From the IMG/VR virus record IMGVR_UViG_3300029476_000074: DNA of 5,906 nt. One strand, 5' to 3'. Within the stretch, counting starts at the first letter, position 1; each line of letters begins with the position of its first letter. Both the position numbers and the translations under genes were made by a program. Source of the DNA: a virus (lineage: Duplodnaviria > Heunggongvirae > Uroviricota > Caudoviricetes). This document shows, in pieces, positions 1 through 2,512 of the stretch. The notes under the pieces were generated by a model. That model worked only from the letters and a program-made list of their open reading frames with translations. It had not been told where the DNA came from and made no database searches.

Positions 1-170
1 CCGGGAAGTTTGAGCAGAATAACCATGTGGTGATTAACAACGACGGCACGAACGGGCAGATAGGTCCGGCTGCTCTGAAGGCGGTGTATGACATGGCCCG
101 CAAGGGTGCCCGTGATGAAATTCAGACACAGATGCGTGATGGTGGACTGTTCTCCGGAGGTGGACGATGA
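1..170 (+). CDS. H: Tail tape-measure protein, C-terminal end (5'-truncated by window edge)
   Basis: Open frame in codon phase from position 3 to TGA at 168-170, translating ...GKFEQNNHVVINNDGTNGQIGPAALKAVYDMARKGARDEIQTQMRDGGLFSGGGR*. This matches my recollection of the lambda gpH C-terminus. The stop overlaps the next start (ATGA), as in lambda H/M. Lies immediately upstream of M in conserved order. Confidence 0.88.
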   Translation, partial: GKFEQNNHVVINNDGTNGQIGPAALKAVYDMARKGARDEIQTQMRDGGLFSGGGR

Positions 171-496
171 AAACCTTCCGCTGGAAAGTGAAACCCGGGA
201 TGGATGTGACATCGGCTCCTTCCGTCAGGGAGGTGCGCTTTGGTGATGGCTATTCCCAGCGTGCGCCTGCCGGGCTGAACGCTGACCTGAAAACGTACAG
301 CGTGACGCTGTCTGTCTCCCGTGAGGAGGCCACGGCGCTGGAGTCGTTTCTGGCTGAGCACGGGGGCTGGAAGGCCTTTCTGTGGACGCCGCCTTATGGT
401 TACAGGCAGATAAAGGTGACCTGCGCAAAATGGTCGTCGCAGGTCAGTATGTTGCGTGTTGGGTTCAGCGCAGAGTTTAAACAGGTGGTGAACTGA
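167..496 (+). CDS. M: Minor tail protein M (tail tip assembly), 109 aa
   Basis: ORF 167..496 encodes MKTFRWKVKPGMDV...AEFKQVVN, 109 aa, the same length as lambda gpM and near-identical by recollection. GGAGG at 156-160 sits 6 nt upstream of the ATG. Stop TGA 494-496 overlaps the L start (TGATG). Confidence 0.95.
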   Translation: MKTFRWKVKPGMDVTSAPSVREVRFGDGYSQRAPAGLNADLKTYSVTLSVSREEATALESFLAEHGGWKAFLWTPPYGYRQIKVTCAKWSSQVSMLRVGFSAEFKQVVN

Positions 497-1194
497 TGCA
501 GGATATCCGGCAGGAAACACTGAATGAATGCACCCGTGCGGAGCAGTCGGCCAGCGTGGTGCTCTGGGAAATCGATCTGACAGAGGTCGGTGGTGAACGC
601 TATTTTTTCTGTAATGAGCAGAACGAAAAAGGTGAGCCGGTCACCTGGCAGGGGCGGCAGTATCTGGCGTATCCCATTCAGGGGAGTGGTTTTGAACTGA
701 ATGGCAAAGGCACCAGTACGCGCCCCACGCTGGCAGTCTCTAACCTGTACGGCATGGTCACCGGGATGGTGGAAGATCTGCAGAGTCTGGTCGGCGGAAC
801 GGTGGTCAGGCGTAAGGTTTATGCCCGTTTTCTGGATGCGGTGAACTTCGTCAACGGAAACAGCGACGCCGATCCGGAGCAGGAGGTGATTAGCCGCTGG
901 CGCATCGAGCAGTGCAGCGAATTGAGCGCGGTCAGTGCCTCCTTTGTACTGTCCACGCCGACTGAAACGGATGGTGCCGTTTTTCCGGGGCGCATTATGC
1001 TGGCTAATACCTGCACCTGGATCTATCGCGGTGATGAGTGCGGTTATAACGGTCCGGCGGTCGCGGATGAATATGACCAGCCGACGTCCGATATCACGAA
1101 GGATAAATGCAGCAAATGCCTGAGCGGCTGTAAGTTTCGCAATAACGTCGGCAACTTTGGCGGCTTCCTTTCCATTAACAAACTTTCGCAGTAA
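496..1194 (+). CDS. L: Minor tail protein L (tail tip assembly, Fe-S cluster-binding), 232 aa
   Basis: ORF 496..1194 encodes MQDIRQETLNECTRAEQSASVVLWEIDL...FLSINKLSQ, 232 aa, the length of lambda gpL. C-terminal Cys cluster (CTW...DEC...DKCSKC...SGC) at nt 1012-1131. Start coupled to the M stop. Confidence 0.95.
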   Translation: MQDIRQETLNECTRAEQSASVVLWEIDLTEVGGERYFFCNEQNEKGEPVTWQGRQYLAYPIQGSGFELNGKGTSTRPTLAVSNLYGMVTGMVEDLQSLVGGTVVRRKVYARFLDAVNFVNGNSDADPEQEVISRWRIEQCSELSAVSASFVLSTPTETDGAVFPGRIMLANTCTWIYRGDECGYNGPAVADEYDQPTSDITKDKCSKCLSGCKFRNNVGNFGGFLSINKLSQ

Positions 1195-1199
1195 ATCCC

Positions 1200-1943
1200 A
1201 TGACAGAGACAGAATCAGCGATTCTGGCGCACGCCCGACGATGTGCGCCAGCGGAGTCGTGCGGCTTCGTGGTGAGAACGCCGGAGGGGGAAAGATATTT
1301 TCCCTGCGTGAATATCTCCGGTGAGTCGGAGGAGTATTTCCGGATGTCTCCGGAAGACTGGCTGCAGGCAGAAATGCAGGGTGAGATTGTGGCGCTGGTC
1401 CACAGCCACCCCGGTGGTCTGCCCTGGCTGAGTGAGGCCGACCGGCGGCTGCAGGTGCAGAGTGATTTGCCGTGGTGGCTGGTCTGCCGGGGGGCGATTC
1501 ATAAGTTCCGCTGTGTGCCGCATCTCACCGGGCGGCGCTTTGAGCACGGGGTGACGGACTGTTACACGCTGTTCCGGGACGCTTACCATCTGGCGGGGAT
1601 TGAGATGCCGGACTTTCATCGTGAGGATGACTGGTGGCGTAACGGCCAGAATCTCTATCTTGATAATCTGGAGGCCACAGGGCTGTATCAGGTGCCGTTG
1701 TCAGCGGCGCAGCCGGGCGATGTGCTGCTGTGCTGCTTTGGTTCATCGGTGCCGAATCATGCCGCTATTTACTGTGGTGACGGCGAGCTGCTGCACCATA
1801 TTCCTGAACAACTGAGTAAACGAGAGAGGTATACCGACAAATGGCAGCGACGCACACACTCCCTCTGGCGTCACCGGGCATGGCGCGCATCTGCCTTTAC
1901 GGGGATTTACAACGATTTGGCCGCCGCATCGACCTTCGTGTGA
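1200..1943 (+). CDS. K: Tail tip assembly protein K (JAB/MPN + NlpC/P60 two-domain protein), 247 aa as the long ORF
   Basis: ORF 1200..1943. JAMM-like motif HSHPGGLPWLSEAD (HxHx7SxxD) at nt 1401-1442. NlpC/P60-like catalytic Cys in GVTDCYTLF (Cys codon 1560-1562) with a downstream His in PNHAAIY. The C-terminal 199 aa starting at MSPEDW (ATG 1344) correspond to the classical lambda K annotation. ATG 1200 lies 5 nt after the L stop, consistent with coupling. Confidence 0.93.
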   Translation: MTETESAILAHARRCAPAESCGFVVRTPEGERYFPCVNISGESEEYFRMSPEDWLQAEMQGEIVALVHSHPGGLPWLSEADRRLQVQSDLPWWLVCRGAIHKFRCVPHLTGRRFEHGVTDCYTLFRDAYHLAGIEMPDFHREDDWWRNGQNLYLDNLEATGLYQVPLSAAQPGDVLLCCFGSSVPNHAAIYCGDGELLHHIPEQLSKRERYTDKWQRRTHSLWRHRAWRASAFTGIYNDLAAASTFV

Positions 1944-2512
1944 AAACGGGGGCTGAAGCCATCCGCGCACTGGCCACACAGCTCCCGGTGTTTCGTCAGA
2001 AACTGAGCGACGGCTGGTATCAGGTACGGATTGCCGGGCGGGACGTCAGCACGTCCGGGTTAACGGCGCAGTTACATGAGACTCTGCCTGATGGCGCTGT
2101 GATTCATATTGTTCCCAGAGTCGCCGGGGCCAAGTCAGGTGGCGTATTCCAGATTGTCCTGGGGGCTGCCGCCATTGCCGGATCATTCTTTACCGCCGGA
2201 GCCACCCTTGCAGCATGGGGGGCAGCCATTGGGGCCGGTGGTATGACCGGCATCCTGTTTTCTCTCGGTGCCAGTATGGTGCTCGGTGGTGTGGCGCAGA
2301 TGCTGGCACCGAAAGCCAGAACTCCCCGTACACAGACAACGGATAACGGCAAACAGAACACCTATTTCTCCTCACTGGATAACATGGTTGCCCAGGGCAA
2401 TGTTCTGCCTGTTCTGTACGGTGAAATGCGCGTGGGGTCACGCGTGGTTTCTCAGGAGATCAGCACGGCAGATGAAGGGGATGGTGGTCAGGTTGTGGTA
2501 ATTGGGCGGTAA
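1841..2512 (+). CDS. I: Tail tip assembly protein I (ubiquitin-like N-terminal domain, Gly/Ala-rich hydrophobic C-terminal region), 223 aa
   Basis: ORF 1841..2512 encodes MAATHTLPLASPGMARICLYGDLQRFGRRIDLRV...GGQVVVIGR, 223 aa, the length of lambda gpI. Overlaps the 3' end of K by 103 nt in a different frame, the arrangement I recall for lambda K/I. Confidence 0.93.
   Translation: MAATHTLPLASPGMARICLYGDLQRFGRRIDLRVKTGAEAIRALATQLPVFRQKLSDGWYQVRIAGRDVSTSGLTAQLHETLPDGAVIHIVPRVAGAKSGGVFQIVLGAAAIAGSFFTAGATLAAWGAAIGAGGMTGILFSLGASMVLGGVAQMLAPKARTPRTQTTDNGKQNTYFSSLDNMVAQGNVLPVLYGEMRVGSRVVSQEISTADEGDGGQVVVIGR

Follow-up and report, generated by a model that had tools for sequence, protein, structure and literature searches.

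The window, i.e., the whole stretch of 5,906 nucleotides analysed here, holds a lambda-like prophage tail-tip module, arranged as M-L-K-I-AT-rich insert-J (Table 1). Among phage records, ev017 comes closest (98.9% identity); the nucleotide identity to lambda-type phages is ~96.6% over the 901 nt from 1100 to 2000. The K gene sits between L and I in the M-L-K-I-J order and is highly identical to its lambda counterpart (about 96-97% of nucleotides), which makes it the lambda gpK orthologue; its product matched the minor tail protein family phrog_30 (E = 3e-163), and its 3' end is overlapped by 103 nt of gene I. The window K is an ordinary, already known member of the gpK family, already correctly annotated on prophages.

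Table 1. Positions of genes, domains and sequence signals in and around gene K.
Feature	Position	Strand	Basis or remark
Gene M	167-496		Pfam identity of M (profile search of the window)
Gene L	496-1194	+	Pfam Phage_tail_L, E = 3e-99; upstream partner for coupling
L stop TAA (1192-1194), 5-nt spacer and K start ATG (1200-1202)	1192-1202	+	Candidate translational coupling site
Gene K, full 247-codon form	1200-1943	+	TGA stop 1941-1943; ORF list, Pfam, RefSeq PGAP
Disputed first 48 codons of K	1200-1343	+	Predicted helix 3-15, strands 21-27 and 30-36; conserved residues, dN/dS, pLDDT
Predicted JAMM/MPN+ (Prok-JAB) metalloprotease domain, residues 1-103	1200-1508	+	Pfam, PDB profile matches, AF2/Foldseek
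E19 GAG codon, predicted general acid-base Glu of the JAMM motif (E-x-C-G)	1254-1256	+	Conservation, 2kcq/2kks alignment
Shine-Dalgarno-like GGAGGAG (1328-1334) and internal ATG (1344-1346, codon 49), the 'classical' lambda K start	1328-1346	+	Duplex energies, alignment
Predicted zinc-ligand motif H68-S-H70-x7-S78-x2-D81	1401-1442	+	Conservation
Predicted NlpC/P60 (C40) papain-like peptidase domain, residues 111-224	1530-1871	+	Pfam PF00877, 49 bits vs cutoff 23
Gene I	1841-2512	+	Pfam Lambda_tail_I, residues 14-97; ubiquitin-like N-terminal domain, Gly-rich linker, C-terminal domain
Gene J	from 2991		Separated from I by the AT-rich insert 2513-2990

The K frame is open for 247 codons without interruption, and ATG 1200 is its first possible start, as the frame opens only 7 codons further upstream and holds no ATG, GTG or TTG there. 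The analysis bears out the sequence-only reading, made beforehand from the letters alone, in that this ATG follows the L stop by 5 nt and lacks a Shine-Dalgarno sequence: the most stable pairing with the 3' end of the 16S rRNA was +0.7 kcal/mol, a value equalled or bettered at 97% of window positions. The same reading took this arrangement to fit translational coupling, and a tight junction between the upstream stop and the K start was indeed found in 18 of 20 divergent loci, the K start ranging between 11 nt downstream of the stop and an overlap of 8 nt (TGATG/ATGA-type junctions). From geometry and conservation, coupling to L fits as the normal mode of K initiation. In YYZ-2008 (NC_011356, 1-400), an anti-repressor gene (Ant) and not L precedes K, and the long-form ATG has an AGGAG 5 nt upstream, so that the long-form start has its own Shine-Dalgarno where coupling is unavailable. 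YYZ-2008 is an O157 prophage with a different N-terminal tip of K (M--LYSNIL...), and its tail-tip module has apparently been rearranged exactly at the L/K junction.

The internal ATG at 1344 would give the 199-aa form beginning MSPEDW and, as had been proposed, corresponds to the start of K in the lambda annotation (14276-14875). It is preceded at a distance of 9 nt by the GGAGGAG run that the earlier reading rightly noticed but placed one base too far downstream, at 1329-1335; its duplex energy (-9.5 kcal/mol) is within the top 2% of window positions. The contrast between the missing Shine-Dalgarno at ATG 1200 and the strong one at ATG 1344 counts against the long form. Nevertheless, two copies of GGAGG-N4-11-ATG were counted in the window where 2.16 would be expected, and an internal signal found at chance rate is uninformative either way. 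By the same token, a 48-codon open extension would alone be weak evidence, and it is taken as non-random because it is homologous, residues 1-48 matching the Prok-JAB family.

With regard to domain content, the long form matched Prok-JAB (PF14464) over residues 4-98 at 53 bits (cutoff 25), covering profile positions 4-103 of 114, whereas the short form reached 22.9 bits, below the cutoff, and covered positions 63-103 only. Residues 1-48 on their own matched profile positions 3-40, the N-terminal third of the profile (E = 4e-5), and alignments to the PDB profiles 2kcq, 2kks and 5lda likewise ran from profile position 3-4. The HSHP motif that had been located at residue 68 is present there as part of the full zinc-ligand motif, H68 being residue 20 of the short form; H68, H70 and D81 are invariant, and S78 was found in 60 of 64 distant homologues. 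In the C-terminal domain, the NlpC/P60 triad C121, H187 and H199 was retained in 63 of the 64 at each position.

HMMER, run exhaustively against 1.84 billion representatives, returned 2686 matches. Among full-length relatives (34-59% identity, 228-262 aa), residue 2-10 of the query aligned to their residue 3-15, and in the alignment of 64 distant homologues most N-termini lay 0-3 residues from M1. Of the 24 columns of this alignment that are invariant or nearly so, six, E19 and G22 among them, fall within residues 1-48, and the conserved positions there comprise P17 (61 of 64), C21 (61), G22 (64), N38 (64) and F47 (63). The sequence-only reading had argued that the Glu needed upstream of the zinc motif exists in the long form only, and had offered APAESCGFVV and TPEGERYF as its possible sites. 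The first proposal is upheld, since E19 (APAESCG) is present in 63 of the 64 distant and in 63/63 mixed homologues, aligns with PEEGCG and PNEACG of the solved bacterial JAB proteins 2kcq and 2kks, and is absent from the 199-aa form; the second is not, as the TPEGERYF glutamates are not conserved and E19 is the only conserved upstream Glu.

The putative GTG starts at codons 24, 25 and 37 were also considered, the last being the point at which the KT232076 annotation of K begins. These were rejected, since they would remove E19 or helix 1 and do not agree with the N-termini of homologues.

The earlier reading had named the absence of purifying selection on the first 48 codons as an outcome that would speak against the long product. 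By the Nei-Gojobori method on 17 close sequences, the comparison of lambda-like with Stx-like K gave a dN/dS of 0.12 for codons 2-48 and 0.13 for codons 50-247 (dS ~0.53). Other comparisons gave 0.32-0.40 for codons 2-48 against 0.14-0.17 for the rest, always well below 1; within the lambda-like clade, where substitutions are few, the values were 0.39 and 0.14, which was counted against the long form. Variable sites in the first 48 codons are distributed as 12/9/24 over codon positions 1/2/3, an enrichment at the third position. As judged from these substitution patterns, the first 48 codons are under purifying selection.

It is in this context that the proposal that the 199-aa protein alone is made, with the upstream 48 codons untranslated or vestigial, has to be weighed. 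It agrees with the historical lambda annotation, copied into HK630, DE3 and imm21, and with the strong Shine-Dalgarno before 1344. We regard it as exceedingly unlikely, given the purifying selection on codons 2-48, the conservation of E19, C21, G22, N38 and F47 across the family, a Prok-JAB match that is incomplete without residues 1-48, and the origin of the annotation itself, which goes back to a frame-breaking gap found only in reference-derived records (see below).

The AlphaFold2 model of the 247-aa K (63-sequence alignment) reached a pLDDT of 95.1 and a pTM of 0.88, and the helix and two strands that it places within residues 1-48 have pLDDT 95-97. In Foldseek searches, the N-terminal domain was best matched by 5lda_A (TMt 0.66, rmsd 2.5 A), the Pyrococcus furiosus JAMM1 in complex with SAMP2, a ubiquitin-like protein, with further matches to Rpn11, AMSH and CSN5, while those of the C-terminal domain included MepS/Spr and Acd33800. 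The 199-aa form would begin at helix 2, without helix 1 and strands 1-2. Its model had a pLDDT of 93.1, with 87/93/87 in the JAB remnant (10-residue blocks) against 96/98/93 in the long form; this confidence carries no weight, because it is driven by the alignment and does not test the folding of a truncated domain. By profile and model, then, the N-terminal domain of K appears as a Prok-JAB domain with the upstream Glu, the zinc ligands and the MPN fold, and the C-terminal one, by its profile match and Cys-His-His triad, as an NlpC/P60 domain. The view of the sequence-only reading that the longer product is the functional one is supported by the completeness of the Prok-JAB match, the N-termini of homologues, the conservation of E19, the selection on the first codons and the predicted fold.

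The same reading had added that both products could be made. Such nested products would be the 247-aa protein from ATG 1200 and, from ATG 1344 with its GGAGGAG, a 199-aa protein that lacks the catalytic Glu but has a working NlpC/P60 domain, in the manner of C/Nu3. The C/Nu3 and S107/S105 pairs, whose internal starts are experimentally established, resemble K codon 49 in that a longer ORF contains a second, in-frame ATG preceded by its own Shine-Dalgarno. Consistent with such a pair are the energy of the Shine-Dalgarno-like duplex and its spacing, the ATG at codon 49 in 12 of 13 lambda-like sequences (counted against the long form) and the position of the NlpC/P60 domain, wholly inside the short form. 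Unlike the C/Nu3 and S107/S105 starts, however, that of K is not conserved. Among 17 close relatives, five lack the ATG at codon 49: four Stx-type phages or prophages have ATT or ATC there, and one Escherichia ruysiae prophage has CTG. In the 64 distant homologues, residue 49 is most often Ile (41), followed by Met (12) and Leu (7), with Ile or Leu in 48. All five relatives without the ATG keep CCG GAG GCG, hence GGAGG, and its persistence there argues that the run is explained by Pro/Ser-Glu-Ala/Glu codons, that is, by the amino-acid sequence. A short form would moreover begin in the middle of the MPN fold, and its start signal occurs at the chance rate given above. In these alignments, Met49 is simply one of the hydrophobic residues (Ile, Met, Leu) tolerated at this position, and the internal start is not a conserved feature of the K family; a C/Nu3-like pair of conserved internal start and Shine-Dalgarno was not found. 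We consequently hold nested products to be unlikely and the statement that both could be made to lack support. A narrower variant, improbable in our estimate, would confine them to the lambda-like clade, where the Shine-Dalgarno and the ATG at codon 49 would give a nested, NlpC/P60-only gpK without JAB activity and with a tail-tip role of its own, a recent dual-start gene in a single-product family.

The origin of the 199-aa form became apparent from the alignment of the window with the lambda reference. NC_001416 reads GGAGGC-TATTTCC where the window, HK630 and ev017 have one base more; in J02459/NC_001416 one G is missing after 14266 (GGAGGC[G]TATTTCC), and base 1334 of the window is that G. 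Its absence puts K codons 1-45 out of frame, the break lying 10 nt before the first in-frame ATG downstream, and the upstream ATG of reference lambda (14133) opens a 76-aa ORF that continues, in another frame, beyond 14276, where K is annotated to start. The 199-aa classical annotation exists because the missing G breaks the long frame in J02459/NC_001416, and, by sequence comparison, the real lambda K is 247 aa.

By direct reading, the G is absent only from J02459, NC_001416 and OR974322; OR474059 equals the reference at 1001/1001 positions over the region, as judged from the match alone, with its gap not read. HK629, HK630, DE3, imm21, imm434, KT232076, PV340536 and LC730321 span one extra base, and in HK630, imm21, DE3, KT232076, PV340536 and LC730321 the G was read and the 247-codon K is intact. 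Furthermore, a scan of genome contigs with one genome per species found 26 lambda-type loci with the G and 0 without it. LC730321 was rejected as a proxy for the sequenced strain, as its stf region differs (+C at 20836, divergence from 21704). Of more use in this respect is MW057783, a de novo lambda assembly that was deposited under the name of a Campylobacter phage (CJLB-4), whose only differences from J02459 are 37589 C>T, 37742 C>T, 43082 G>A, 45352 G>A, the additional G and a deleted G at 139. We take its four substitutions to be the cI857 ind1 Sam7 markers, the genotype from which the 1982 sequence was obtained; the split S gene of this record is consistent with Sam7.

The re-sequenced lambdas, together with the 26 of 26 loci, indicate that the reference is in error at the missing G or, at the most, that the original stock carried a lesion there, a distinction judged here by comparison with present-day sequences. 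Were the lesion real, the 1982 stock would truly have lacked the G, K would have worked there from the internal start, and the short form would have been at least sufficient. We consider this improbable, since MW057783, with the markers presumed above, has the G, as do all 26 lambda-type loci of unrelated assemblies and every lambda derivative checked, and since the records without it amount to the reference, its RefSeq copy and OR974322, to which OR474059 may be added with the reservation given above. In its favour, laboratory lambda PaPa has a real frameshift in stf (PMC10721106). A literature search of partial coverage found no published erratum or statement on the missing G in J02459, which also speaks for a real lesion, although one may have been published.

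Two further observations concern the lambda records themselves. At position 139, in the non-coding left end, J02459 has an extra G relative to LC730321 and MW057783, likely a second single-base error. In addition, lambda control-DNA contigs of low coverage and up to about 48.4 kb occur in many unrelated bacterial 'genomes' (among them Neobacillus, Shewanella, Pseudomonas, Bradyrhizobium and Chromatium); these contigs and MW057783 are contaminated or misattributed records.

Taken together, our preferred reading, to which we assign a probability of roughly 0.88, is that K is a single 247-codon gene starting at ATG 1200 and encoding two peptidase domains, and that the 199-aa form is not an alternative product but derives from the gap in the reference.

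In annotation practice, the 247-aa K was obtained where genes were called de novo, as in ev017, PV340536, MW057783, Lys8385Vzw and, by PGAP, on E. coli chromosomes; in RefSeq, the PGAP annotation of E. coli prophages nearly identical to the window has this 744-nt CDS too. The 199-aa K in HK630, DE3 and imm21, on the other hand, was annotated by analogy with lambda despite an intact ORF. The exact 247-aa lambda K protein is encoded on at least 1000 contigs, while the UniRef entry TIPK_LAMBD holds the 199-aa sequence. In a 2020 review (PMC7291167), analysis of the 199-aa entry revealed no domain other than the C-terminal peptidase, an effect of the truncated entry on published domain analysis.

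In the window, the annotation of K should span the full frame (Table 1), as RefSeq does for prophages. The single-base gap that explains the 199-aa form is a useful by-product of the analysis, for K in J02459, NC_001416 and TIPK_LAMBD omits the first 48 residues, including the predicted catalytic Glu of the deubiquitinase-like domain, and cloning, modelling or mutating gpK by reference coordinates means working with an incomplete enzyme. As a side observation, phrog_7305 ('unknown function'), a 76-position profile, matches K residues 1-76 (window 1200-1427), and the artefactual ORF upstream of K in reference lambda is likewise 76 aa long; this suggests that K fragments have been catalogued as a separate PHROG family.

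Under the preferred reading of a single long product, ribosomes that end L at its TAA would most likely reinitiate at ATG 1200 without a Shine-Dalgarno. In the resulting protein, a JAMM/MPN+ zinc isopeptidase at the N-terminus, in which E19 would serve as the general base and H68, H70 and D81 would bind the zinc, is followed by a C-terminal NlpC/P60 papain-like domain carrying C121, H187 and H199. The JAB plus NlpC/P60 architecture of K-type proteins was described by Iyer et al. 2006 (PMC1779556), where gpI was also predicted as the substrate of the JAB domain, and cleavage of gpI has been described in a meeting report (PMC12908700). Lambda gpK was undetected in virions by mass spectrometry (PMC10721106) and was not resolved by cryo-EM (PMC12617516). 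By homology with lambda gpK, K may act during tail-tip assembly, remove the ubiquitin-like N-terminal domain of gpI and then not be kept in the virion. Gene I of the window is a matching candidate, with its Lambda_tail_I domain followed by ...AKSGG and the Gly-rich linker, and its product is presumed to be what the K JAB domain cleaves.

An active JAMM site needs the upstream Glu, which is the general acid-base residue in AfJAMM (E22, to which E19 of K corresponds in spacing) and is required for activity in CSN5, as seen with E56A (PMC300881). Since only the long form has E19, this requirement argues for the long form as the functional one.

Comparison with known systems places K as follows. 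Lambda gpK (TIPK_LAMBD, AAA96551; 199 aa as deposited) occupies the same M-L-K-I-J position and has the same JAB plus NlpC/P60 architecture as the window K, but the deposited entry starts at Met49; residues that differ between window and lambda K include E3/Q, R26/S, S43/P and E45/A, and the internal Shine-Dalgarno-like run is longer in the window (GGAGGAG) than in lambda (GGAGGCG). P. furiosus JAMM1 (5LDA/5LD9) shares with K the MPN+ fold, as modelled, over 106 columns at the rmsd given above, and a similar E...HxH...S..D spacing. The partner of archaeal desampylases is, as presumed for K, a beta-grasp ubiquitin-like protein ending in Gly-Gly; their identity to K is about 22-24%, and K scored 26.5 with NF041370, far below the cutoff of 130. 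Unlike the stand-alone archaeal JAMM, K is fused to NlpC/P60, and its candidate substrate would be a linear fusion within gpI rather than an isopeptide conjugate. Rpn11, CSN5 and AMSH resemble K in fold and catalytic motif but have insertions and partner subunits, and the target-normalised TM-scores were only 0.3-0.45. The C-terminal domain of K corresponds to E. coli MepS/Spr in fold and Cys-His-His triad; K, unlike MepS/Spr, has no signal peptide or lipobox, and would probably act in the cytoplasm during tail assembly.

Gene I shows an annotation problem opposite to that of K. PGAP and RAST call its start at GTG 1940 (190 aa), which cuts about 20 residues from the ubiquitin-like Lambda_tail_I domain, this beginning at residue 14 of the 223-aa form. 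The classical ATG 1841, which gives the 223 aa, is preceded by the Shine-Dalgarno-like GAGAGAGG (-9.3 kcal/mol), and a third candidate, ATG 1880 (Met14), has no Shine-Dalgarno.

Between I and J, where lambda has nothing, the AT-rich insert contains an ORF (2586-2924) for a 112-aa lipoprotein-like product (MNKTILFCTIIALTGC, lipobox LTGC), with a terminator-like hairpin at 2948-2968 after it. The ORF had no Pfam match but matched phrog_914, a family of unknown function (E = 7e-33), and the insert gave no megablast match in 50,697 phage records. Of 5426 complete E. coli genomes, 337 contain it, annotated as 'hypothetical protein'; it looks like a moron that possibly encodes a surface or exclusion lipoprotein.
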